Of a stretch of DNA of 64,000 nucleotides, positions 30,926 through 41,138 are shown in pieces. The DNA is from Candidatus Latescibacterota bacterium (GTDB lineage: Bacteria > Latescibacterota > UBA2968). Location: assembly GCA_965116885.1 (NCBI GenBank), contig OZ220741.1, positions 1,728,001 through 1,792,000 on the forward strand. The letters run 5' to 3'. Under the pieces are notes generated by a model. It searched no databases and was not told where the DNA came from. It saw only the letters and a program-made list of their open reading frames with translations. Position 1 is the stretch's first letter; each line of letters begins with the position of its first letter. A program made the position numbers and the translations under genes.

Positions 30926-31021
30926 CTCAATTCGATGTTCAGCCTGACTTTTACTCGATAATAATCTCTATACGAAATAAAAATAATGACTTACAAATAT
31001 TATTATTTTAAAAGTCCACAT

Positions 31022-31037
31022 TGGCATACATGTTGCA
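31022..31037 (+). promoter_or_regulatory. sigma54 (-24/-12) promoter
   Basis: TGGCATACATGTTGCA, i.e. GG-N10-GC matching TGGCA-N6-TTGCW, about 100 nt upstream of the operon's first ATG. Confidence 0.75.
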
Positions 31038-31138
31038 TGTATCTGTTTAAGCAGTAAAAAATCTGTATTGAATCGTATGGAGATTCACGCTCTGAGCCTC
31101 AAATATTTAGACAGCGTTTTATCGCACAGGAGAAAAAT

Positions 31139-31945
31139 ATGAACAAACAGAAAATACTGATTATAGATCACGACCCCGGCATTCTATCGACCCTTGTCGG
31201 ATTTCTGAGCGATGAACCTTATGACGTATGCACAGCGAGCAATGGGAAAGAAGGGCTTGAAATTTTGAGACGAGAGAAGATCGATCTCGCCATCGCTGAA
31301 ATGTATATGGGAGGTCTTGATGGGGTCGCGCTTTTGAAGCGCGTTGCAATTGAGAAAATTCAGACAAACGTCCTGATCATGGAAAGTGTTGTGCCCATGG
31401 AAATAGCCGAAAAAATACTCAAGGCTGGTACTGCAGGCGTACTGGACAAACCGACCAATAAGGACAAATTTTTGGCAAAGATCAAAAACAGCATCCCACT
31501 GAATGAAGGAGGATACAAGGTGTCGCGGGTCCGTGAAGCATCCCGTTCACAGCCCAGATCCTTTCAACAATTCTTAAACACCGGTCGAGAGAAGGTTTCA
31601 CCAGAGGCGTTGGAATCATTCTTGGAGGAGCGTTACAGAGATCCAGACCTGAAATTTGAAGACCTCACACGCCATTTTCGGATCACCCCACCGCACGGTC
31701 ATGTACTATTCAAAAAATTTTTTAACAAGACCTTCCGCGAAAAATTGCGAGAGGTCAGAATATCGCAAGCAGAGCATTTTTTATCGGGATCATCCCTGTT
31801 GATATATGAAATTGCACGCCTATGTGGGTTTCATTCATCAAGTCGTTTCTGTCACGCTTTCAAGAGGATACATGGCATTTCTGCTACCCAGTATCGAAAA
31901 AAATTTATGCGCGGAGAGATCGAGACGCTTTCGGAAGATGCCTGA
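31139..31945 (+). CDS. Atypical response regulator (pseudo-receiver plus AraC HTH)
   Basis: REC fold with DLAIAE (acceptor D replaced by E) and LDKP; C-terminal EIARLCGF..SRFCHAFKRIHGISATQYRK. Confidence 0.85.
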   Translation: MNKQKILIIDHDPGILSTLVGFLSDEPYDVCTASNGKEGLEILRREKIDLAIAEMYMGGLDGVALLKRVAIEKIQTNVLIMESVVPMEIAEKILKAGTAGVLDKPTNKDKFLAKIKNSIPLNEGGYKVSRVREASRSQPRSFQQFLNTGREKVSPEALESFLEERYRDPDLKFEDLTRHFRITPPHGHVLFKKFFNKTFREKLREVRISQAEHFLSGSSLLIYEIARLCGFHSSSRFCHAFKRIHGISATQYRKKFMRGEIETLSEDA

Positions 31946-32001
31946 GTTGAATGTTCATTTGTCTGGTCGAAATTCACTTTTAACAGTGGGCTACATGAGT
32001 T

Positions 32002-33282
32002 ATGGCACATAGTGAACAGGTTGTAAGATTCAATGGCTATCCACAAAAAGATGTGTCTTTTGAAAACACAGAGGCACGAGAAGCCCTCTCAACTTCGGGG
32101 ATTGGCTTCCGGTTTGTGCGCTATTTCTTGCTCACCATTTTGTGCGTTGTGGGAAGCATGGTCGCGTTTATCTGTCTTTTGGGATGGCATCTGGGCATGG
32201 AAATTACGATTGCAGGACAGGGTCGCTTGCAGCCTACTGCGCGTTATGAAGTGAAAGCACAGCGATCAGGCTTGATCCAGACGGTTTATGTGCAACACGG
32301 GCAAGAGATTGCACAGGGGGATTTGATGCTGACTTTGGATGATACCGATTTACGCACGGAATTGGAGCAACTTGAACATGAACTGGCGATGAATCAGAGT
32401 CGGCGTGTGGCTCTGGTATCAGAATTGCAACGCGAGCGTGCTGTTTTGGAGACAGAGATTGCACGGGCTGAAGTGGCGTATGAGACCGCACAGTTGCAAT
32501 TGGAACAGGTACGGCAAGAATACCAGATCTACCGCAAATACGCACCTTATCGCGAGGATGGGAGTGTGCGACCACCTGTTGATACATTGATCCCTATTCG
32601 GGTACACCAGACGCGGGTAGAGAGCGCAGAGGTAGAAATTGAGCGGGCAAAACGGCGGCTGGTCGCTCTGGACAATCGCAAGCAGGAACACGAGATGCTA
32701 AAACAGACGTATGAAAAATTACAGGTCAGCCATCGCCTTGTCAAAACTCGTATGGAACAGATGAAGATATACGCACCTGTTTCTGGAACGGTGTTGACGC
32801 GCGATTTGGATAAACGCGAGGGAGATCGCATTGAGGCGGGTGAGGCCGTGATTGAATTGGCCGAATTGCACAGTTGGCAAGCAAAGGTGATGATCCAGGA
32901 AGTGGATATCCCAAAGGTGAAAGAGGGACATAAGGTGCGAATATATGTAAATGCTTTTCCACACATGGAATACAAGATTTTTGAGGGCAGGGTGACAGAC
33001 GTGCCGAGAAAACCCGAGTCTATCACACCTATGGGCGCCGGTCTCGTACCGGGCGGTATGAGCACGGTTTATCCAGTGAAGATCAGTGTGATAGATCCGC
33101 ATTTATCTGACGGAGAATGTCCGCTTGCTTATGGGATGGGTGTAGAAGCCAAAATCGTGACAGAACGCGGTCCCATCGTTGACTTGCTGTGGAAGAAGTT
33201 TCTGAAAACCGTGGGCAAAATTGGGCGTCCTGAAATTTATCGGTTGGAAGAACCCCTTGAAACTGTACAGACCGGGAACTGA
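32002..33282 (+). CDS. HlyD family membrane fusion protein
   Basis: N-terminal TM, lipoyl-like VYVQHGQEIAQGD, coiled coil, IYAPVSGTV, AFPHMEY..FEGRV, GMGVEAKI. Confidence 0.9.
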   Translation: MAHSEQVVRFNGYPQKDVSFENTEAREALSTSGIGFRFVRYFLLTILCVVGSMVAFICLLGWHLGMEITIAGQGRLQPTARYEVKAQRSGLIQTVYVQHGQEIAQGDLMLTLDDTDLRTELEQLEHELAMNQSRRVALVSELQRERAVLETEIARAEVAYETAQLQLEQVRQEYQIYRKYAPYREDGSVRPPVDTLIPIRVHQTRVESAEVEIERAKRRLVALDNRKQEHEMLKQTYEKLQVSHRLVKTRMEQMKIYAPVSGTVLTRDLDKREGDRIEAGEAVIELAELHSWQAKVMIQEVDIPKVKEGHKVRIYVNAFPHMEYKIFEGRVTDVPRKPESITPMGAGLVPGGMSTVYPVKISVIDPHLSDGECPLAYGMGVEAKIVTERGPIVDLLWKKFLKTVGKIGRPEIYRLEEPLETVQTGN

Positions 33283-33290
33283 ATGAGCCA

Positions 33291-35006
33291 ATGCGTCAGA
33301 TATTCAAAATCATCAAAATGCTCCGGCCTTACTGGCGGTTTATCTTTCAATCTCTTCTCGTGGGCATCATGGTCATGTTCTTGCAAATCCCAGGACCGTA
33401 CATCACCAAGGTTTTGATTGATGACGTATATCCCCACAAAGACTATACGCTCCTAACCTTTATCCTGATTATAGGTGCTGTGCTCTCGACGGGGTTGGGA
33501 TTCACAAATTTATTGAGCAGCTATTTTAGTCGTTATGTGGGTGTCAACATGGGATTGGATTTCAAATCTCGATTTTACTCCCATGTACAGTCGTTGGACT
33601 TCAGCTTTTTTGACAACCGTCAGACGGGCGAAATCCTGTCTCGCTTCAGGGATATGGACAGATCTATCAACAGCACCATTGGAATGGTGAATAGCCTGAT
33701 TATGAACACCCTTCAGTTGCTCATCTTTCCACCTATTTTGCTTTATATCAACTGGAAACTCGCCTTGATCAGCCTGGCGGTGTTACCTTTTGATACTGTG
33801 TTAATTATGGTTTCTAAAAAATATCTCAGCAGAGTCTCAAAAAAAGTGACCGAAGCATCTGCTGAATTATCTGCTAAGTCCTACGAATCGCTTTCGGGCA
33901 TCCGGACAGTGCAAGCACTGGGACTGGAAGCCGCGTTTTATCACAAGCTCAGAGACATCTTTCTCGATGTTTCAAAATTGCAGATCCAATCAACGCATTT
34001 AAGTGGAGGATTTGGGTTTATAGGGTCGTTGGTGAAAACAGCGGGTACTCTGGCGTATGGATGGTATGGCTGGACGCAAGTTCTATCCGGCAATCTCTCT
34101 CTGGGCAGTTATATGGCTTTTTCGGGGTATGTAGGATATCTCTACGGTCCAATAGGCAATCTCATCGGCCTCGTAGGACAGGTTGAAATGGCTTTGGTTC
34201 GCATCAATCGCTTCTTTGAAGTCTATGACTTGAAACCCGATATCCAGGATCGTCCCGATATGGCTGTGTTGCCACAGGTGCGAGGTGAGATCAGTTTTCA
34301 CAATGTGAGTTTTTCGTATCAAGAAGATCAACCCGTTTTGCGTCACATCAACCTGCACATACCCGCACAGACCACCATTGCTCTGGTCGGCAAGAGTGGG
34401 TCTGGCAAATCTACACTTGCCAAATTGATCCCGAGATTTTACGACCCGCAAGAGGGATATGTGTCTATTGATGGGTACGATATTCGAAACTATCGCTTAA
34501 AATCCATCCGGCAGCAGGTTGGATTTGCGATGCAGGGTGGCACTTTGTTTCAGGGTAGTATTTTAGACAACCTGACCTTTGGACACGATATTCCAATGCG
34601 AGATGTCCAGGCTGCGACACAAGCAGCGTACATTCACGACTTCATCGCATCCTTACCCGAGGGCTATGAAACGCTGGTGGGTGAACAAGGGTCACAGATG
34701 TCGGAGGGACAGAAACAGCGTATTGCACTGGCACGCGTGCTATTGATGGACACGCCTATCCTGATATTAGATGAACCCACCGCCGCGTTGGATATGGAAT
34801 CTGAATATCATATCCAGGAGGCATTGAAAACCGTGCGACAAGGTAGGACAACCATCATCATCGCACATCGGCTTTCAACCATTCAAAACGCAGACGAGAT
34901 TGTGGTATTGGATGAGGGACAGATCGCAGAGCGAGGAACGCACGAATGGTTAGCCATGCAAGATGGAGTTTATGCCCACTTGTATGAAAAAACAGCAAGT
35001 ATATGA
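33291..35006 (+). CDS. ABC exporter (TMD plus NBD) without a C39 peptidase domain
   Basis: RQTGEILSRF (bacteriocin/T1SS-type TMD), GKSGSGKST, MSEGQKQR, LDEPTAALD. Confidence 0.92.
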   Translation: MRQIFKIIKMLRPYWRFIFQSLLVGIMVMFLQIPGPYITKVLIDDVYPHKDYTLLTFILIIGAVLSTGLGFTNLLSSYFSRYVGVNMGLDFKSRFYSHVQSLDFSFFDNRQTGEILSRFRDMDRSINSTIGMVNSLIMNTLQLLIFPPILLYINWKLALISLAVLPFDTVLIMVSKKYLSRVSKKVTEASAELSAKSYESLSGIRTVQALGLEAAFYHKLRDIFLDVSKLQIQSTHLSGGFGFIGSLVKTAGTLAYGWYGWTQVLSGNLSLGSYMAFSGYVGYLYGPIGNLIGLVGQVEMALVRINRFFEVYDLKPDIQDRPDMAVLPQVRGEISFHNVSFSYQEDQPVLRHINLHIPAQTTIALVGKSGSGKSTLAKLIPRFYDPQEGYVSIDGYDIRNYRLKSIRQQVGFAMQGGTLFQGSILDNLTFGHDIPMRDVQAATQAAYIHDFIASLPEGYETLVGEQGSQMSEGQKQRIALARVLLMDTPILILDEPTAALDMESEYHIQEALKTVRQGRTTIIIAHRLSTIQNADEIVVLDEGQIAERGTHEWLAMQDGVYAHLYEKTASI

Positions 35007-35061
35007 TATAAACTTGACCTTCGGGGGCTGTAGTATTCATTTCTTTGAAAGGAGAAACACA

Positions 35062-35445
35062 ATGAAAATCGTAAAGTTGCACAAACCTCAGCGGATGGGC
35101 AGTTTGGAAAACGTTCTTGCCTATTCTGGTGAGGAAGATGAACAGGCCCAGGCAGATTCTACTGCTACAGATAGTACGGGTGTGCAGAGAACGGATAGGG
35201 GATTTGAAACGACCCTTGAGGGAGATGATGGGCGCATTACATTTACATTGGACCTTCCTTTTGGTAAAAAAGAAGGAGCAGGAGACGATCCAGATAGTAC
35301 AATCGTCAGTGTCTCGGGGGGGTTATTTGGTGTTAGCGCGGGAATAGAGATAGCTGTTCCTATCCCTCCGCCTACCCCTCAGCCTGATTATATTACGCCT
35401 GGTGATGTAGAGTATGATCAGTTTGGCAGAAAACTTATTCATTAA
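35062..35445 (+). CDS. Putative precursor/substrate protein (127 aa) with a CLI_3235-like leader ending in VLAY
   Basis: AAGGAGA RBS; MKIVKLHKPQRMGSLENVLAY followed by an acidic, Cys-free core; directly after the exporter. Confidence 0.65.
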   Translation: MKIVKLHKPQRMGSLENVLAYSGEEDEQAQADSTATDSTGVQRTDRGFETTLEGDDGRITFTLDLPFGKKEGAGDDPDSTIVSVSGGLFGVSAGIEIAVPIPPPTPQPDYITPGDVEYDQFGRKLIH

Positions 35446-35634
35446 TCTGGATATTGAAAATTATAACCGTTCACAGGTTTTGCCCGATCTGAAAGCCGTG
35501 AACAGTTTTCTCAGCCCCCGAAGGCTTTTTGCAATACATTTTAACATTCTCAGCGCGTTGACGTGAATTAATGAATCAAGTATTTTATCCCAGATGTCCC
35601 TTATCCCTGTCCAGATAGACGAGAGAATGCTGTA

Positions 35635-36327
35635 ATGAAAAAGTTTCTGCTGTTGTGCCTTCCCCTTGTACATGCCGTTGCTTTCTATTATTTTGCGAGT
35701 TTTATTTTAGAACCTTATAAATCTCGTGGACAAGCTCAAATTTTGTCAAAAAAAGGAAATAAGTTTTTGAAGATTGGTGCCGTTGAAGAAGCTTTGAAGG
35801 CCTATCATCAGACAGTTGAATTAAATCCCGAAAATAAGTTTGCCTGGAATATCCTGGGCTTGATTTATAGAGACCAAGAAAAAAATCAAGACGCGCTTGA
35901 AGTTTATGACCAGGCACTTCAAATACTACCTCAAGCATCTATCTTATGGAATAATCGAGGTACTGTTTTGATGAAAATAGACGAATTGGAAAAAGCACTT
36001 CTTTCATTTGATCGCGCATTAGAACTTGACACCGAATATTCTGATGCCTGGAACAATAGAGGGGTTATATTTCTGGAGTTAGGCAGATTACCCGAAGCAA
36101 TCATAGCATTAGATCGGTCAATTGAACTGAATCCCCAAAATGGTAATACCTGGTATAACCTGGCCCGAGTATATGGAGCAATGAAAAATAAAGAACAGAC
36201 TCTTTCAAGCTTAAAAAGAGCACTCCAGTGGGATCCTGCCCGAAAAAAAAGAATTCACAAAGAGCCAGCTTTCAAATTTTTATTGGCAGACGAAAGTTTT
36301 AAGATGTTGAGCAACAAACTGGATTAA
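35635..36327 (+). CDS. Membrane-anchored TPR protein
   Basis: N-terminal hydrophobic helix; about 5 TPRs (AWNILG, LWNNRG, AWNNRG, TWYNLA). Confidence 0.88.
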   Translation: MKKFLLLCLPLVHAVAFYYFASFILEPYKSRGQAQILSKKGNKFLKIGAVEEALKAYHQTVELNPENKFAWNILGLIYRDQEKNQDALEVYDQALQILPQASILWNNRGTVLMKIDELEKALLSFDRALELDTEYSDAWNNRGVIFLELGRLPEAIIALDRSIELNPQNGNTWYNLARVYGAMKNKEQTLSSLKRALQWDPARKKRIHKEPAFKFLLADESFKMLSNKLD

Positions 36328-36346
36328 ACAGAATTGGAATTATTCT

Positions 36347-37087
36347 ATGGCTCCAGGATCATCAATTGAAGAAGCCCCTAAAACGGAATCTGTACAAGAG
36401 AACTGGCCGCCAGCACTCCAGGTGCCTTTGGCAAAGGGTTTGACCTGGTCTTGTTTAATTATCCTGGAAGGTGTGATTGTGTGGAGACTTGTATCGCCAC
36501 CAAGGGGTTTCGTGAATGCCCTTATGCAAGGGTTGCATCTTCTCTTAGTGCTTTTTGTTTTGGTTCAATTCGGACGGTTTGAGTTAAAGAAAATGGTGTC
36601 TTATGATATTCCCCCTAAACGCGTATTCTTCTTCTGGATATATGCAGGTATAGGTCTAACAGCGTATTATTTACCCCTTAATTTCTGGGAAGGCCTCGGT
36701 GCCCAACCTCCAGACTTTGTTTTTCAGTATCTATGCCTTTTTATTGCACGGGTTATATTAGCACCAATTGAAGAAGAGCTTCTTTACAGAGGTCTGCTTT
36801 ACGGAACGATCAGGACAAAATATGGAAAATTTAAGGCTTATGTCATTAGTATTTCAATCTTTGTTTTTAGCCATAGACGTTTATGGCCTTATATCATAGA
36901 GGGTTATTGGGATTTATTTTTTGTGTACTTGATTGCATTGACAGTGATTGCTTGTCTTTTAACCTATCTCTACGAATCTAAGCGCAGCCTTCTGTTATGT
37001 ATGGCTTTTCATAGCTCTGCAAATATTAATGTCACTATTACACCTCTTCTTGGATTTCTGTATGGCGGCTATATCGTCAGCAAGTGA
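36347..37087 (+). CDS. CPBP (Abi/CAAX) intramembrane metalloprotease, possibly immunity or processing
   Basis: APIEEELLYRG, FVFSH, FHSSAN motifs. Confidence 0.88.
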   Translation: MAPGSSIEEAPKTESVQENWPPALQVPLAKGLTWSCLIILEGVIVWRLVSPPRGFVNALMQGLHLLLVLFVLVQFGRFELKKMVSYDIPPKRVFFFWIYAGIGLTAYYLPLNFWEGLGAQPPDFVFQYLCLFIARVILAPIEEELLYRGLLYGTIRTKYGKFKAYVISISIFVFSHRRLWPYIIEGYWDLFFVYLIALTVIACLLTYLYESKRSLLLCMAFHSSANINVTITPLLGFLYGGYIVSK

Positions 37088-37114
37088 TTTTTAAACTTCT
37101 CAAAGAGTAAAAAA

Positions 37115-37840
37115 ATGTATCAAATGCATCCCTTAAACAAAAACGATTTACATCACTATGCTACTTTTTTGAGAGATATTCAGACACACCATTGGTCCTT
37201 GTCTTCAAATGCTTTTCAAAGACAGCCAAACCCTGAATGCCTGCCCAGCTATGAAGAACTTATTGAGGACTTGAGCAATTTAGAGTACTCGGTCATCTAT
37301 TTACTCAAGCGAAATCACCGCATTATTTCATCCATGAAAATAACCCAAAAGAAATCTGAGTCCGGTGTGCTCATTTTTTCTCATGTAGAAACCCATCCCG
37401 ACTTTCAGAAACGCGGAACTTTTGGACTGGCATTGGGGGATGCGTGTTTGAGAGCGGTCTGCGGATCTGAGTGTAAACGCATCGAAATTACGACCTGGTC
37501 GTTCAATCGAAAAGGGATTCCGCTTTATAAACGCTATGGATTTCGTGCGATACCAGGCACCAATCTTTTGATGGAAAATTATCTGCCAGCTATTGTGAAG
37601 CATGTAGATGCACAACCCTATTTTGCTCGCCATGATTATATTCGTACACTCTATAACAAACGCAGTTATGGGTATGATGCTATTGAAATGAATGGCTCAA
37701 GTGTCTTTGAGTATCGCTGGAAGCCGAGAAAGGCTGATGACACATTGCGCGTGTTGGTTGATTGGAAAAAAAAAGAAATCATGGATGTGAAATGCAAGAT
37801 CATGGATTCACCATCATTAGTTAGAGAATGTCATGCGTAG
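37115..37840 (+). CDS. GNAT family N-acyltransferase
   Basis: VETHPDFQKRGTFG (motif A) and NRKGIPLYKRYGF (motif B). Confidence 0.85.
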   Translation: MYQMHPLNKNDLHHYATFLRDIQTHHWSLSSNAFQRQPNPECLPSYEELIEDLSNLEYSVIYLLKRNHRIISSMKITQKKSESGVLIFSHVETHPDFQKRGTFGLALGDACLRAVCGSECKRIEITTWSFNRKGIPLYKRYGFRAIPGTNLLMENYLPAIVKHVDAQPYFARHDYIRTLYNKRSYGYDAIEMNGSSVFEYRWKPRKADDTLRVLVDWKKKEIMDVKCKIMDSPSLVRECHA

Positions 37841-39734
37841 AGAAAATTCCTCTCAAATCCGGATTGCCATTGTCGATAGCGGCATAGACGCATCGCATTC
37901 TGGTGTGCGTGATGTTGCAGGTGGTGTTCATATTCAGATTGGGGAGAAAGGCGAGGTCGTGTTGTCAGATGATTATTACGACTGTGCAGGCCATGGCACG
38001 GCGTGTGCCGGGATTATTCGAAAGAAGGCACCTGATGCAGCACTGTATAGCGTGCGGATTTTTGATGACTCTTTGATGGCGGATGGCCGAGCACTCATTG
38101 CGGCGATTCAGTGGTGTATTGACAATGAGATGGATGTAGTGAATTTGAGCCTGGGCACGACGGATGTGACGTTTAAGAAATCTCTTCAAAAGGTGTGTCG
38201 CAAAGCGGTTGACGCTGGCGTGATTCTCGTAGCTGCTGAGAGCAATGACGGGGGTGAAAGTTATCCTGCGGTATTTCCCGAAGTGATTGGTGTGACGGGT
38301 AGTGCGATCCATGAAGTAGATGGATTTTACTACCGTAAGGATCATCGCATCGAATGTGTGGCGCGAGGCGATGATCAGCGTGTGTGCTGGTTAAACGGAA
38401 AACATATTATGACGGGGGGAAATAGCTTTGCTGCGCCGCATATCACGGGCATTATCGCACACCTGTTGGAGCAGCATCCAAAATGTTCGGTTCAAGATAT
38501 TCGGTTATTATTAAAAGAAAAAGTATTAAACGAAATATCTCAAGATCGAAATAAGTCCAAATCTGATCGTCAGGCACACCGAAAAGATTTTCAAGAGGAT
38601 TATTCTTGGATAAACAAAGCCGTGCTATATCCGTATAACAAAGAGATGCACAGCCTGGTGCGCTATCGTGATTTGCTTGCGTTTGAGATTGTCGGCGTCG
38701 CCGATCCCATTGGCAAGGGGATGGTGGGCAAGGATGCAGGCCAGGTGATTGGGGAACCCCATGCAAATTTGCGGATTAGCCCAAATATCCGCCGCGCAAT
38801 GGCAGATGCGGATACGCTTATCCTCGGGTATGTGGATCAACTATCTCGCATCCGCAAGCGCGATTTGTTGAGAGAATATGTGCAATTGGCTCTTGATGAG
38901 GGATGCCATGTGTTCAGTTTTCAGGCACTTGATCCAACCGTTTACGGCGATCTGTATGATACATCGGGCAAAAAGGGACTGAACCTTGCCTATCCTCATA
39001 TTCATAGAGAAGAACTTGCACAGGCGATTCAGCATTTCAACGCGCTTCCACCTGTGGATGTGCCAGTGCTTTCTGTGATGGGGACGAGTTCTCAACAGGG
39101 CAAGTTCACGTTGCAACTCGCGCTCAGGCGTAGGCTCATCCAAAAGGGCTATAAAGTCGGGCAGATCGGCACTGAACACCATTCCCGGTTATTCGGCATG
39201 GATGCTGCTTTTCCAATGGGTTACGCTTCACCGCTCAAACTGCCATTTCAACATTACATACCGTATTTGGATTACAAAATGCGAGAAATTTGCCAGCGCA
39301 CACAGCCCGATATTATCCTGACAGGCTCTCAATCGGGAACTATTCCCTATCATGTCCAGGAACACAGTACACATTGCTTGTCTTCACTGGCATTTTTACT
39401 GGGGGTAAAACCCGATGCCTGCATTCTGGTGGTCAATAGTATTGATGCAGAAGAATACATACGCGATACCATAGATGGCATACGTGCGGTGTGCAAAGCA
39501 TTGACCATCTTGCTGGCGATGGGCGACCACGAAAAACACATCCGAACAGCTTATGGGCGCAGTATGATCACGCCCGAAAAGATGGCACAAGTCCAAATAG
39601 AACAGCACTTAAAAAAACTACAAGATACGTTTTGTGTGCCTGCGATTGAAATTCTTTCAGAGATAGGTCAACAGCGTCTTGTGGAAACTGTGATTCGATA
39701 TTTTTCAAAGGATGATACAGCAGGTATTGCATAG
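37833..39734 (+). CDS. S8 subtilase fused to a TIGR04066/DUF1611-like peptide-maturation domain
   Basis: Triad IVDSG / HGTACAG / GNSFAAP, no signal peptide; C-terminal part KAVLYPYNKE..GKDAG and VPVLSVMGTSSQQGKFTLQLALR..GYKVGQIGTE. Confidence 0.8.
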   Translation: MRRENSSQIRIAIVDSGIDASHSGVRDVAGGVHIQIGEKGEVVLSDDYYDCAGHGTACAGIIRKKAPDAALYSVRIFDDSLMADGRALIAAIQWCIDNEMDVVNLSLGTTDVTFKKSLQKVCRKAVDAGVILVAAESNDGGESYPAVFPEVIGVTGSAIHEVDGFYYRKDHRIECVARGDDQRVCWLNGKHIMTGGNSFAAPHITGIIAHLLEQHPKCSVQDIRLLLKEKVLNEISQDRNKSKSDRQAHRKDFQEDYSWINKAVLYPYNKEMHSLVRYRDLLAFEIVGVADPIGKGMVGKDAGQVIGEPHANLRISPNIRRAMADADTLILGYVDQLSRIRKRDLLREYVQLALDEGCHVFSFQALDPTVYGDLYDTSGKKGLNLAYPHIHREELAQAIQHFNALPPVDVPVLSVMGTSSQQGKFTLQLALRRRLIQKGYKVGQIGTEHHSRLFGMDAAFPMGYASPLKLPFQHYIPYLDYKMREICQRTQPDIILTGSQSGTIPYHVQEHSTHCLSSLAFLLGVKPDACILVVNSIDAEEYIRDTIDGIRAVCKALTILLAMGDHEKHIRTAYGRSMITPEKMAQVQIEQHLKKLQDTFCVPAIEILSEIGQQRLVETVIRYFSKDDTAGIA

Positions 39735-39742
39735 GAGGGGTT

Positions 39743-40018
39743 ATGTCTATTGAACATCGGGTCAAACAGGTGATCATTCGCACGTTGTCTCTTGAAGTTG
39801 AAGCAGACGAAATTGACGATGAAGACGAGCTTTTTGGAGGTGGCCTGGGTATTAATTCGATGGCGACGATTGAAATTATTGTGGGTCTGGAAGAAGAATT
39901 TGGCATTGAGGTGCCAGATGAAGATTTGCGCGTGGAACTGTTTGATAGCGTGCAAACCATGGCCGACTATGTTCGCGCAGTGTTACAGAAAGTACCTGCT
40001 GCCGGATATATAGAATAG
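39743..40018 (+). CDS. Acyl/peptidyl carrier protein
   Basis: LGINSMATIEIIVGLEEEFGIEV; phosphopantetheine Ser retained. Confidence 0.9.
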   Translation: MSIEHRVKQVIIRTLSLEVEADEIDDEDELFGGGLGINSMATIEIIVGLEEEFGIEVPDEDLRVELFDSVQTMADYVRAVLQKVPAAGYIE

Positions 40019-40061
40019 ATTTTTCGCTCACACTCGGATGACATAGCTTTTGAGACACATC

Positions 40062-41081
40062 ATGCAAAAAATACTTCCCATCCAGGTATCCCCACCCATA
40101 CATGGCTATCCTCGCCATGGCTATCGGCTTTCGATTATGTCGCTTCACGATGCGTATATTCCCTGGTTCTTCTGCAATTACATCCAACTCTTCGCCGTTG
40201 ACCTGTTGCATGAGAACAAACACAATATCCGATTCAACTTCTATTTTCAGGGACCGTACTCCCCACCGTGGCTGTCTATCTACACCGTTCCGAGGCGATC
40301 AATTGCCAAAGTCTATCATCAGATTGTGCCGTTTATTCGGGACCAGATTGATGAGGGCTTCTATGTCCAGTTAACAGCCGACGAGTATTTCCTGCCGCAT
40401 ACGCCATTTTATGAGAAAATACATCATCCACATGCTATTATGGTATTCGGATACGATGACGATACAGAAACGCTTGAGACTCTGGGATTTAATAGAGCGC
40501 GGGACTACTCTGTTTCAAGGGTTGGGTATTCAGATTTTGAAGCGGCGTTTCGCTGGATTGATCCCGAGAAACGCAGATCGTACCGGATAGATCTTTTTGA
40601 GTATAACGAGGACGGTGTCTATGAGTTTGATATTGATGCTGTCATTGACCAGTTGCGAGCTTATGTCCATTCCGAGAATTCGTCTATCTACTATCGGACG
40701 TTGCGCAAGCCAGTTGAAGGCGTTTTTGGGATGGCGACGTATAAGCTCTTACGAGATTATTTTACGCATTTGTTTGTTCATCCCCGGTTGTGGGATCGGC
40801 GGCATCTGTTCACGCTTTGGGAGCACAAGCGTTGTATGCTGAACAGGCTTGCTTATCTGGAGGAGCGCGGGTATTTGCGTCCGTCAGACCAGTTTCATCA
40901 GGCGTACAAGGAGGTTGAGCATAAGGCGCATCAGATTCATCTGATGATGCTTAAGTTGCGAGCGCTAGGGGAGGTCAAGAGAACGTGGGATGTGGAACGT
41001 ATTTTGAAGATTATCACCTTGTTAAATGATATTTCTCAAAGGGAGGAGCGCATTTTGAAGGATGTTTTGACAGCTCTTTGA
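40062..41081 (+). CDS. BtrH-like (butirosin BtrH / papain-like fold) protein, possible ACP-dependent acyltransferase
   Basis: ADEYFLP..FY..HHPHAIMVFGYDD motif typical of the BtrH_N-like family; adjacent to the ACP. Confidence 0.6.
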   Translation: MQKILPIQVSPPIHGYPRHGYRLSIMSLHDAYIPWFFCNYIQLFAVDLLHENKHNIRFNFYFQGPYSPPWLSIYTVPRRSIAKVYHQIVPFIRDQIDEGFYVQLTADEYFLPHTPFYEKIHHPHAIMVFGYDDDTETLETLGFNRARDYSVSRVGYSDFEAAFRWIDPEKRRSYRIDLFEYNEDGVYEFDIDAVIDQLRAYVHSENSSIYYRTLRKPVEGVFGMATYKLLRDYFTHLFVHPRLWDRRHLFTLWEHKRCMLNRLAYLEERGYLRPSDQFHQAYKEVEHKAHQIHLMMLKLRALGEVKRTWDVERILKIITLLNDISQREERILKDVLTAL

Positions 41082-41096
41082 GGCGCGTACACTAAT

Positions 41097-41138
41097 ATCC
41101 CCTATCGCGCGTTATTGCGATGGGGGATTGGTTTTTTT
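41097..41138 (+). terminator. Terminator closing the maturation operon
   Basis: ATCCCCTATCGC..GCGATGGGGAT then a T-run. Confidence 0.6.

Follow-up and report, generated by a model that had tools for sequence, protein, structure and literature searches.

The small open reading frame described here lies in a 64,000-nt stretch of a contig from a Candidatus Latescibacterota bacterium (the window), and its product is very probably a leader-bearing, exported precursor. According to sequence comparison, its basic 21-residue leader is a conserved, portable module that is found on several unrelated cargos, and each cargo swaps as a module together with its own CPBP protein (with or without a TPR protein) while the flanking machinery stays constant. 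On balance, we lean toward reading the ORF as the structural (cargo) gene within an operon for leader-dependent maturation and export (Table 1), and its product as a polymorphic competition factor that resembles bacteriocins.

Table 1. Features of the cargo locus; all positions refer to the window.
Feature	Positions	Strand	Basis and remarks
Response regulator with AraC-type DNA-binding domain; opens the locus	31139..31945	+	Response_reg 70 bits, HTH_18 58.6 bits
HlyD-family membrane-fusion adaptor	32002..33282	+	Pfam HlyD_3, HlyD_D23; NCBIfam type_I_hlyD E 3e-26 (below its cut-off)
ABC exporter (transmembrane and ATPase parts) without N-terminal C39 peptidase	33291..35006	+	ABC_membrane, ABC_tran
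Ribosome-binding site AGGAG	35050..35054	+	7-nt spacer to the precursor ATG; sequence reading
Cargo precursor ORF	35062..35445	+	127 aa; ATG start
Leader, codons 1-21 (MKIVKLHKPQRMGSLENVLAY)	35062..35124	+	Predicted cleavage after Tyr21, between 35124 and 35125
Cargo part and stop codon	35125..35445	+	106 aa, acidic, Cys-free, hypervariable; starts with an acidic linker rich in Ser/Thr/Asp, continues with a strand-rich middle, and ends in conserved ..VEYDQFGRKLIH
Pair of conserved stem-loops with a U-run after each	35465..35530	+	Directly 3' of the cargo gene
Promoter-like site TTGACG, 17 nt, TATTTT	35558..35586	+	Precedes the TPR and CPBP genes; consensus match only
TPR protein with N-terminal hydrophobic anchor; belongs to the variable module	35635..36327	+	TPR_1 131.5 bits
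CPBP (Rce1-like) intramembrane protease; cargo-specific partner, candidate immunity protein	36347..37087	+	Pfam Rce1-like 55 bits
GNAT-like acyltransferase	37115..37840	+	Acetyltransf_1 20.5 bits (cut-off 20.7); 8-nt overlap with the next gene
S8 serine protease (~8-237, no pro-domain) fused to a DUF1611 domain (~261-616), TIGR04066-related	37833..39734	+	Peptidase_S8, DUF1611
Acyl carrier protein (ACP), phosphopantetheine serine in GINSM at 36	39743..40018	+	PP-binding 43.9 bits; PRK07081 64.6 bits (cut-off 72)
343-aa protein with two-part CtaG/CcbD/AziU3 fold (papain-like N-domain, helical C-domain)	40050..41081	+	Candidate ACP-dependent transacylase; directly downstream of the ACP gene
Terminator-like hairpin, 13-bp stem and T-run, at the operon end	41097..41128	+	Consensus scan

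The ORF is a genuine gene, as indicated by its ribosome-binding site, its homologues (37 of 46 candidate proteins at E ≤ 0.01), a gene order around it that is kept in all five genome loci compared, and a dN/dS below 1. The 21-aa leader has a pI of 10. The 106 residues after Tyr21 contain 21 Asp and Glu residues but neither Cys nor Trp, which gives a pI of 4.05 and a charge of about -14; the computed mass of the unmodified residues 22-127 is 11,170 Da. An earlier note, made from the sequence alone, had described such an acidic, Cys-free core of 106 aa, and the leader MKIVKLHKPQRMGSLENVLAY, the core start SGEEDEQAQ, and the PIPPPTPQP stretch that it listed are all present as written. Scans of the precursor against Pfam and NCBIfam returned no family, even at E ≤ 10. 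Contigs assembled from RNA libraries (four runs from two studies) are 90-99% like parts of 34981-40993 and include leader-bearing alleles with a different core, and RNA libraries with the label sponge metagenome yielded contigs that carry related alleles. No such contig fell on 31000-34750 in these runs, which had been picked with the query 34700-36400. The contigs, which may derive from DNA and are silent on transcript ends and levels, give a weak hint that the locus is expressed.

Conservation within the precursor is concentrated in the leader. Its residues 1-21 have a mean pairwise identity of 0.84, against 0.42 for residues 27-110 (computed from 28 of the 37 aligned rows, all full-length; the other nine were excluded as truncated or because the usual C-terminal His was missing), and V18, A20, and Y21 are each conserved in at least 90% of the alignment. 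The residues after the invariant A-Y vary among the homologues (SG, SS, AG, QG). At the nucleotide level, the leader is 85-94% identical to that of the related loci L003-L007, whereas the core reaches 43-63%. The adjoining 3' end of the ABC gene is 84-91% identical in four of these loci (39% in L005, where the contig ends), and the spacer downstream of the cargo is 89% identical in L003 and L004 and 50-74% identical in L005-L007. The dN/dS ratios (Nei-Gojobori) amount to 0.14-0.26 for the leader, 0.46 for the core, 0.05-0.06 for the ABC gene, and 0.08-0.13 for the HlyD gene. Simple codon counts in the leader, with 90 synonymous versus 204 non-synonymous pairwise differences, were uninformative. 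Reading the ..AYSG sequence as a double-glycine leader was ruled out, because the residues after AY vary and the exporter has no C39 domain.

The same leader precedes other proteins. A profile built from the first ~32 residues matched precursors whose cores were absent from the profile (G081, 61 bits; G084, 38.7 bits; P0039, 62.7 bits; P0040, 55.3 bits), and its strong matches (E < 1e-8) occurred in nine of the 21 genomes of one Latescibacterota genus and in none of the 147 genomes searched from the rest of the phylum. The leader-bearing proteins fall into at least four unrelated kinds of core (A, B/D, C, and E), all within one Latescibacterota genus. The match between the window precursor and the G081 protein is confined to residues 1-32, and no match of the window precursor to the type-B cargo was obtained at E ≤ 1e-4. 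A word-based search with residues 1-40 retrieved the same cargo family in 20 of 20 matches and no other cores, which the profile searches did find. The earlier note had considered that the leader could be a portable tag, had made its conservation among homologues decisive, and had proposed a scan of the genome and of relatives for similar leaders; the alignment and the leader-only profile agree with the first two points, and the scan located such leaders on at least four kinds of core and near four S8-DUF1611 genes.

These four genes are the only S8-DUF1611 genes of the genome and its sole matches to TIGR04066, a model without any match in 14 control genomes. Each of the four systems adjoins small ORFs with leaders that end in h-x-(A/T/G)-Y. 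A loose leader pattern combined with a ribosome-binding site, defined from four of the seven ORFs that it matches, finds seven small ORFs in the 5.56 Mb genome, six of which lie within 8 kb of S8-DUF1611 genes, a zone that makes up 1.3% of the genome. System 2 additionally encodes an ABC ATPase and a pair of membrane proteins without a known family, and a TPR-C39-like protein belongs to system 3; both sets add to the bacteriocin-like character of these systems.

For the precursor itself, AlphaFold yielded a mean pLDDT of 55 and a pTM of 0.27, with strands at residues 37-43, 47-54, 57-64, 79-84, and 92-98. The strand-like segments marked in the earlier note overlap with these strands, but the model is poor and lends no support to the small folded core that had been proposed; a search of the ESM Atlas with residues 27-127 also gave no usable match. 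Confidence is highest at the C-terminus (pLDDT 70-77), which is better conserved than the middle (0.52 vs. 0.42 identity) and occurs in two alternative versions, ..PGDVEYDQFGRKLIH or, in other alleles, ..DSGYCPQCLPH, each ending in L-x-H. These properties of the C-terminus would also suit a long-leader RiPP, in which residues ~1-105 form a carrier comparable to nitrile-hydratase-like or Nif11-like leaders and the last 17-25 residues are the modified and released core, a piece that the neighboring CPBP protease could trim off. We regard this as quite unlikely, since the operon encodes no known core-modifying enzyme (radical SAM, YcaO, or lanthipeptide synthetase), the middle is the most variable part of the protein whereas long leaders are conserved throughout, cargos behind the same leader carry unrelated C-termini, and the invariant V-x-A-Y is situated at residue 21, far from the C-terminus.

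The reading of the entire mature part as an exchangeable cargo is in line with the organization of the related loci. In G085 and G088, the gene order is response regulator, HlyD, ABC, a module of CPBP2 and cargo B, GNAT, S8-DUF1611, ACP, and the CtaG-like gene, and the machinery is 75-96% identical to that of the window. G084 has two cargo modules, and G082 (L006) contains spare TPR, CPBP, and GNAT-fragment cassettes as well as a spare ABC 3' fragment, with no cargo attached to the spare partner cassettes. Among the constant genes, the HlyD adaptor is 90-94% identical in five related loci (73% in G084), the ABC exporter 93-96%, and the GNAT protein 75-92% across loci; the response regulator is 46-49% identical in L004 and L006, compared to ~90% for its neighboring genes. 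Flanking housekeeping genes share 91-99% identity when the same genomes are compared; the enzymes are thus at baseline divergence, and the cargo alone is divergent. Recombination between the conserved leader or ABC 3' end on one side and the conserved downstream spacer or GNAT 5' end on the other may be the route by which cargo-partner modules are exchanged.

Within the module, every cargo type has its own CPBP protein, one each. The catalytic motifs of the window's CPBP protein are intact (EELLYR at 143, FVFSH at 172, HSSAN at 222), and the general motifs EExxxR, FxxxH, and HxxxN/D are present in all four variants checked. The TPR protein is ~88-90% identical in L003 and L004, 60-64% in L005 and L006, and matched as two segments in L007 (62% and 69%), a pattern that follows the cargo subtype; its gene is missing from the type-B loci. 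The TPR and CPBP proteins of the window are 88-91% identical to those of L003 or L004 despite cargos that are only 51-56% identical, which indicates that the partner tracks the cargo subtype and not its fine sequence. Abi/CPBP proteins serve in bacteriocin self-immunity. The CPBP protease beside each cargo type, accompanied here by the TPR protein, might thus be a cognate immunity or handling partner, and we consider the chances even that the cargo is a toxin with immunity. To our knowledge, the strong acidity of the cargos (charges of -6 to -18 across all types) would be unusual among bacteriocins. This acidity of the mature part, its probably disordered Ser/Thr/Asp-rich linker at the start, the indifference of TPR and CPBP to the fine cargo sequence, and the sponge-metagenome label of the RNA libraries would suit a non-toxic secreted surface or host-interaction protein, perhaps lipid-capped and diversified by phages, grazers, or a host, for which CPBP and TPR would be handling or anchoring factors. 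Indeed, one study describes CPBP proteins that assist a papain-like N-acyltransferase without being catalytic themselves (LnsB with LnsA) or that act as a peptide-processing protease (PMC13559823). This alternative has a low probability in our opinion, because the cargo-less spare cassettes of L006 and the private CPBP protein of each cargo type resemble a toxin-immunity pattern, the Gly-rich hydrophobic stretches of the sister cargos (cargo B and the system-2 cargo) are reminiscent of membrane-active peptides, and the catalytic motifs retained in four of four CPBP variants are described as dispensable in LnsB (PMC13559823).

Two elements lie between the cargo and its partner genes. The stem of the hairpins at 35465-35530 is kept in all six loci, with a loop insertion in three and no compensatory pairs, and the two stem-loops are possibly a leaky terminator; they received no call in the terminator consensus scan, and the fold of the spacer was no better than that of shuffled sequences (z-score -0.47). 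The promoter-like site lies within a block conserved in six loci, and such sites are about as numerous as expected (18 found vs. 19.7).

Regarding maturation of the favored competition factor, the basic leader would act as a recognition tag common to several unrelated cargos, and the candidate for its removal is the S8 domain. This domain reaches 162.2 bits against the QhpE model NF049966 (cut-off 165), covers model positions 1-210 of 219, and has an intact Asp/His/Ser triad (VDSG at 14, HGT at 54, GNSFAAP at 196). Subtilisins prefer hydrophobic residues in their S4 and S1 pockets, and the near-invariant V18, A20, and Y21 fit this preference. A cytoplasmic, QhpE-like cut after Tyr21, with Val18, Ala20, and Tyr21 as P4, P2, and P1, respectively, is therefore suggested by the leader, and we consider cleavage between AY and S somewhat more likely than not. 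The ~11-kDa acidic product would then, judging from the gene content, leave the cell through the ABC exporter and the HlyD adaptor. Matches of this exporter to peptide-cleavage and export models begin at model position ~140-170, which implies that it lacks the peptidase part; consistently, Pfam identified no C39 domain in it.

The least certain step is what may happen to the freed α-amine of Ser22, which could be capped with an acyl group from the adjacent ACP. Candidates for loading or transfer of this group are the fused DUF1611 domain, the CtaG/CcbD-fold protein, and the GNAT protein. The DUF1611 half attains 131.3 bits against TIGR04066 (cut-off 200). A PDB sequence search with it gave nothing useful (2g0t, E 0.05), and nothing relevant was found in the literature on DUF1611 and DgcN. 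DgcN, a DUF1611 protein, may be an N-acetyltransferase. In the PDB, the GNAT protein weakly matches N-terminal acetyltransferases (E 0.006). The 343-aa protein was recognized by its structure: its AlphaFold model (pLDDT 78.7, pTM 0.75) matches AziU2/U3, CtaG, and CcbD with a Foldseek probability of 1.00 and with VIA Z-scores of 18.3 (AziU2/U3), 17.6 (CcbD), and 16.1 (CtaG) over 280-297 residues, the next unrelated structure having a Z of 9. Sequence identity to this group is 8-14%, the BtrH_N model gives 26.5 bits (under its cut-off of 29.7), and PDB sequence searches returned nothing useful. His128 and Asp111 are invariant in all eight sequences. No conserved Cys is present near residue 21, the place that corresponds by alignment ranges to Cys11 of CtaG and Cys19 of CcbD, and Cys42 of the window's protein is replaced by Ser in five distant homologues. 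Proteins of the CtaG/CcbD fold are described as carrier-protein-dependent ligases, while AziU2/U3 makes aziridine and is presented as neither ligase nor transacylase (PMC12865890). No acyl-activating enzyme, fatty-acid synthase, or polyketide synthase was recognized in the operon. Altogether, we view N-terminal acylation of the cargo as a possibility that falls short of an even chance.

Combining these steps results in a "cleave-and-cap" route, in which the leader would send any cargo to the S8-DUF1611 protein, the S8 domain would expose the α-amine, the DUF1611 domain together with the CtaG-fold transacylase would acylate it from the ACP, and the ABC-HlyD system would export the product. This complete sequence of events is a tentative proposal that we hold to be rather doubtful. 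The earlier note had put forward a similar succession of cleavage, acylation, and export, and its outline is consistent with the intact S8 triad and the QhpE score, with a serine-bearing ACP next to a ligase-fold protein, and with the ABC exporter and HlyD adaptor encoded upstream.

Genes for TIGR04066-type and ACP-type proteins are annotated in many clusters for Cys-rich peptides, and no literature that assigns a function to them was found. Here, the same toolkit lacks a radical SAM enzyme and serves exchangeable cargos that are protein-sized and Cys-free, which argues for a role separate from crosslinking and directs attention to leader removal and N-terminal capping. If the cleave-and-cap route were true, it would provide a function for the TIGR04066/TIGR04069 pair of CLI_3235-type clusters, turn ordinary ribosomal proteins into N-acylated, possibly lipid-anchored secreted proteins, and represent protein lipidation outside the lipoprotein pathway, with cargo cassettes exchanged between strains. 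Several unrelated cores behind one leader also define a recognition motif, the invariant V-x-A-Y, as a testable tag for processing and export. Moreover, the locus clearly exemplifies how a secreted protein and its membrane partner diversify in a cassette-like manner in an uncultivated phylum, and offers a handle on strain-level competition in Latescibacterota.

Among known systems, lipidated RiPPs of the selidamide and goadvionin type combine a GNAT acyltransferase with an acyl donor pathway in the cluster. Of these features, the operon has the ACP and a GNAT protein that scores marginally under the Pfam cut-off (Table 1), and no acyl synthase or ligase was recognized.

A closer parallel is the maturation of QhpC, a protein of ~110 aa that loses a 28-residue leader to QhpE in the cytoplasm and is then moved across the membrane by an ABC exporter (PMC7876137). 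With QhpC, QhpE, and QhpF, the window system has in common a protein-sized precursor of ~110 aa, an N-terminal leader of 20-30 residues, a subtilisin-like protease free of a pro-domain, and a dedicated ABC exporter (PMC7876137). However, it lacks the radical SAM enzyme QhpD, the flavoprotein QhpG, and the Cys/Trp cofactor chemistry; accordingly, the features of the QHNDH γ-subunit (QhpD crosslinks and the Cys-Trp quinone) have no counterpart in an operon without radical SAM gene or flavoprotein. Its cargo is hypervariable and swappable, whereas the Qhp substrate is a conserved enzyme subunit, and its protease, which stays 3 bits under the QhpE cut-off, is fused to DUF1611 and accompanied by ACP, CtaG-fold protein, GNAT, and CPBP/TPR.

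The CLI_3235 type, represented by SacP23 of Paenibacillus polymyxa, shares with the window a TIGR04066-type protein, an ACP-type protein, a subtilisin, and an ABC exporter (PMC10731318). The earlier note had called the leader CLI_3235-like, and at the level of short motifs the likeness exists: both leaders have a basic N-terminus and an h-x-A-(Y/F) end before a small residue, and MKIVKLHK...NVLAY followed by SG in the window looks, by eye, like MRKLVKR...TIEAF followed by G in the SacP23 precursor (PMC10731318). The family model contradicts true membership with SacP23-like maturation, which we regard as highly improbable. TIGR04065 (cut-off 26 bits) does not match the precursor at E ≤ 10 or any of seven sister cargos, and its best match in the whole genome (11 bits) is located elsewhere than this locus. 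The window core is 106 aa long and contains no Cys, let alone the many of a Cys-rich peptide, and a radical SAM domain is absent from the ten operon proteins; the best TIGR04068 match of the genome (162.8 bits, cut-off 500) lies outside the operon. Furthermore, TIGR04066 and TIGR04069 remain below their cut-offs, the S8 and TIGR04066 parts form one fused protein in the window, and the carrier looks like a canonical ACP, given its score with the ACP model (64.6 bits) versus 17.2 bits with TIGR04069 (cut-off 70). Thus, the window system is a relative of the CLI_3235 system and not a member of it. The product of the SacP23 cluster is reported to have an N-terminus blocked to Edman degradation (PMC10731318), which would be in keeping with the possible N-terminal acylation.

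With the CtaG/BtrH/AsbE/CcbD ligases, the 343-aa protein shares the entire two-part fold, the conserved His and Asp, and a carrier-protein gene directly upstream, but no conserved catalytic Cys was found at the expected place. The acceptor in the window system would be a ribosomal protein, a case for which no example was found in the literature. Finally, the locus can be compared to bacteriocin loci with CPBP immunity and to polymorphic toxin loci. It differs from such loci by an acidic cargo of ~11 kDa that has no double-glycine leader, by an exporter without C39 peptidase domain, and by the extent of its variable part, which comprises the entire mature protein after a short leader and not a toxin domain at the C-terminal end of a long carrier. 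It shares with them a conserved part for export and processing, exchangeable modules of cargo and partner, spare cassettes of partner genes, and a cargo that evolves fast.

The precursor ORF encodes 127 aa, and its ATG is preceded by AGGAG at a spacing of 7 nt. It comprises a basic leader (residues 1–21, MKIVKLHKPQRMGSLENVLAY; pI 10) and a highly acidic core or cargo (residues 22–127; pI 4.05, charge approximately −14, mass 11,170 Da) free of cysteine, and matches no family in Pfam or NCBIfam up to E ≤ 10. The ORF is a genuine conserved gene, because 37 of 46 candidate proteins are homologous to it at E ≤ 0.01, all length differences among these homologs are whole codons, and dN/dS is <1 throughout. 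This confirms the observation, made in an earlier note, of a leader on an acidic, Cys-free core. To the same note the core looked more like a small folded protein, with strand-like segments. AlphaFold, run on a 37-row alignment, predicted five strands coinciding with these segments, but mean pLDDT was 55 and pTM 0.27 (pLDDT of 70–77 was reached only in the last 17 residues), so that we consider a folded core plausible.

Leader and core differ in conservation. Among the 28 full-length alignment rows (nine truncated rows were left out), mean pairwise identity was 0.84 for residues 1–21, 0.71 for residues 22–26, 0.42 for residues 27–110 and 0.52 for the C-terminal 17 residues; M12, G13, V18, A20, Y21 and E24 are conserved at ≥90%. 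Leader conservation among homologs, on which the earlier note had made its interpretation depend, is thus evident. Compared with five related loci, nucleotide identity drops sharply and only in the core (43–63%), against 85–94% in the leader codons, 84–91% at the ABC gene end in four loci (L005 is interrupted there by a contig end) and 89% in the spacer 3' of the cargo gene in two loci of the same subtype. Nei–Gojobori estimates (window versus the related loci L003 and L004) gave dN/dS values of 0.46 for the core (dS 0.65–1.1), 0.14–0.26 for the leader, 0.05–0.06 for ABC, 0.08–0.13 for HlyD, 0.18–0.22 for GNAT, 0.24–0.38 for TPR and 0.34–0.44 for CPBP. Flanking housekeeping genes on both sides are 91–99% identical between the same genomes, and the operon enzymes are therefore at baseline divergence. 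The core represents an old, divergent and exchangeable allele.

A second variable gene is that of the response regulator, which is 46–49% identical in L004 and L006 and 77–83% in L039 and L040, with neighbors at ~90%; its variation is independent of cargo type. The spacer is conserved better than the cargo and contains a putative stem-loop, for which no compensatory changes were seen among the six loci.

Features of the operon (all genes on the + strand) and of related loci
Feature	Position	Strand	Place in operon	Remarks
Response regulator with AraC-type domain	31139–31945	+	first	
HlyD adaptor		+	second	
ABC exporter		+	third	no peptidase domain
Cargo gene	35062–35445	+	fourth	
Stem-loop with U-run	within 35465–35530			kept in 6/6 loci, loop insertion in 3
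Promoter-like site	35558–35586			follows a second small hairpin with U-run, after the first stem-loop
TPR protein		+	fifth	membrane-anchored
CPBP intramembrane protease		+	sixth	EExxxR, FxxxH, HxxxN motifs intact
GNAT-like protein		+	seventh	slightly below Pfam cut-off
GNAT/S8–DUF1611 overlap	37833–37840			8 nt; suggests coupled translation
S8–DUF1611 fusion		+	eighth	triad intact; QhpE 162.2 bits (cut-off 165)
ACP		+	ninth	serine present
343-aa protein		+	last	
Terminator-like hairpin	41097–41128		end	strong
S8–DUF1611 copy, L044	G000:C1:1842357–1844240			61% identical to window's
S8–DUF1611 copy, L046	G000:C1:1939673–1941550			39% identical to window's
S8–DUF1611 copy, L045	G000:C1:5478448–5480157			41% identical to window's
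Locus in G082	L006:8233–16534			
Type B cargo	L006:9018–9422			
Spare ABC gene 3' fragment	L006:9547–9945			
Transposase-like ORF	L006:13011–14354			447 aa; splits one TPR gene
Locus in G081	L038:8000–15400			decayed

Profile searches show that the leader is both conserved and portable. A profile of the first ~32 residues of seven sequences (six with the window's cargo kind, one with a second kind from L006) was searched against 168 Latescibacterota genomes. Of the 21 that belong to the window's genus, 9 gave strong matches (E < 1e-8), whereas the remaining 147 genomes gave none; weaker matches (E 0.02–0.1) were in unrelated large proteins. Among 1.84 billion protein representatives there were 13 matches at E ≤ 0.001, one being a spurious repeat protein. 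Within these searches, the system turned up in a single genus only, which belongs to an uncultivated phylum. Type A cargos, the window's kind, end in ..VEYDQFG(R/N)xLxH or ..DSGYCPQCLPH; in types B and D, a helical part is accompanied by a hydrophobic, Gly-rich stretch and by the motif C-Y-x-S-C-H-D-Q-S-P-P; type C was found in the related genome G081, and type E (proteins P0039 and P0040) carries a C-x-x-C-H motif. The window precursor matches the type C protein in residues 1–32 only and type B cargo not at all at E ≤ 1e-4, and in all types the leader ends in (V/I/M/T)-x-A-Y, followed by S-(G/S)-(E/D). The earlier idea of a portable tag is borne out by these profile searches, in which the same leader precedes at least four kinds of core, including types C, D and E, all absent from the profile's input. 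One or the other Cys motif occurs in P0039, P0040, P0041, P0043, P0045 and the L006 type B cargo; C-x-x-C-H is shaped like the attachment sites of haem c, and there were weak matches to a doubled-CXXCH domain (E 0.02–0.09). The two motifs may mark metal, haem or crosslink sites.

The cargo is exchangeable together with a private CPBP partner, within a constant set of protease–DUF1611, ACP, ligase-fold protein and exporter. In G085 and G088, machinery 75–96% identical to the window's encloses CPBP2 and a type B cargo where the window has its type A cargo, TPR and CPBP, and G084 contains two modules, type D and type A. G082 possesses one type B module (CPBP2 and cargo), one type A module and two extra TPR–CPBP sets, each with a GNAT gene 5' fragment behind it; this locus has the appearance of a reservoir of spare partner cassettes. 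The type C locus of G081 is disrupted by insertion elements. There, the ABC gene is truncated, the S8–DUF1611 gene is split into two frames and the cargo ORF is intact; insertion-element-like ORFs separate it from a 291-aa CPBP, and tblastn found neither GNAT nor 343-aa genes in this locus. Module edges are conserved (ABC gene end and leader; spacer or GNAT gene start) and are likely recombination sites. Type A TPR and CPBP occur in two versions that match two cargo subtypes (~88–91% identical to the window's in L003/L004, ~60–64% in L005/L006; two-piece matches of 47–69% each in L007), without tracking finer cargo differences.

Subtilisins prefer hydrophobic P4 and aromatic P1 residues. Based on this preference, the near-invariance of V18, A20 and Y21 and the precedent of QhpE, the S8 domain is predicted to cut after Tyr21; the freed N-terminus would then be capped from the ACP and the product exported by the ABC–HlyD pair. 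Of the cleavage, acylation and export suggested in the earlier note, the first and last are well founded by homology (QhpE-like S8, ABC–HlyD), and N-terminal acylation of the cargo is plausible. Capping is the least secure of the steps, given that an acyl-activating enzyme was not recognized and that the ligase-fold protein has no obvious Cys. This 343-aa protein, modeled from eight homologs (pLDDT 78.7), shares its complete two-part fold with AziU2/U3, CcbD and CtaG (Foldseek probability 1.00, TM-score 0.45–0.65; VIA Z 18.3, 17.6 and 16.1, respectively, over 280–297 residues, the next unrelated VIA matches being at Z 9). CtaG, BtrH and AsbE are described as papain-like ligases that form an amide with an acyl group supplied by a carrier protein, CcbD as acting similarly on carrier-bound substrates, and AziU2/U3 as sharing the fold but making an aziridine (PMC12865890). 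His128 and Asp111 are invariant in the 343-aa family, and no conserved Cys was found at the position expected by comparison with the catalytic cysteines of CtaG and CcbD. The product might be a competition factor from which CPBP and TPR would protect the producer. Against this reading, all cargos are acidic, and CPBP proteins elsewhere are described as N-acylation helpers or peptide-processing proteases (PMC13559823).

RNA-library contigs (four runs, two studies) match the leader, spacer, TPR, CPBP, GNAT, S8 and 343-aa genes at 90–99% identity; none in the four runs lies on 31000–34750. In two contigs, a matching leader or early core is linked to a matching spacer through a core that fails to match, so that these contigs derive from other alleles. 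Because the runs were picked using the cargo region as query and contigs cannot demonstrate transcription, they provide only a weak hint of expression.

Within the taxonomic family, 22 of 31 genomes contain the S8–DUF1611 fusion. The four copies in the window's genome are its only TIGR04066 matches (131.3 bits for the DUF1611 domain of the window's fusion, cut-off 200); 14 control genomes had none. Each of the other three copies is adjoined by a short ORF that has a ribosome-binding site and encodes a leader similar in style: an 84-aa cargo in system 2 (leader end ..TIYTY; Gly-rich, hydrophobic core), a 107-aa cargo in system 3 (MKTLVKR...GCVEAY, then GDDE; Cys-free core) and a 71-aa cargo in system 4 (leader end ..SRIYGY; acidic, Cys-containing core). 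A homolog of the system 3 cargo in G087 has a near-identical leader and a core with 38% overall identity. A loose pattern (basic N-terminus, then h-x-(A/T/G)-(Y/F), ribosome-binding site, 50–170 aa) retrieved seven ORFs from the whole 5.56-Mb genome, six of them ≤8 kb from an S8–DUF1611 gene (a zone of 1.3% of the genome) and the seventh 9.9 kb away. As four had defined the pattern, only three have test value; two of these look like further cargos and the third is probably a chance match. Systems 2–4 have differing accessory genes, for glycosyltransferases (family 28), thioredoxin-like proteins, a TPR–C39-like protein and an additional ABC ATPase accompanied by membrane proteins.

The likeness to CLI_3235 seen in the earlier note holds for leader motif and enzyme set but not for family membership: the precursor model TIGR04065 matches neither the window's precursor nor the sister cargos, the operon lacks a radical SAM gene, and no match to the radical SAM model TIGR04068 in the genome exceeds 163 bits (cut-off 500). 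The resemblance is real, since the SacP23 precursor is given as MRKLVKR...TIEAF, then G, and its cluster as containing a subtilisin, TIGR04066 and TIGR04069 proteins and an ABC exporter; the SacP23 product is reported to resist Edman degradation (PMC10731318). The characterized protease nearest to the window's S8 domain is QhpE, described as cleaving the leader off a substrate of protein size that an ABC transporter then exports (PMC7876137). The system is a variant of leader-dependent maturation and export that stands between CLI_3235-type peptide clusters and QhpC-type maturation.
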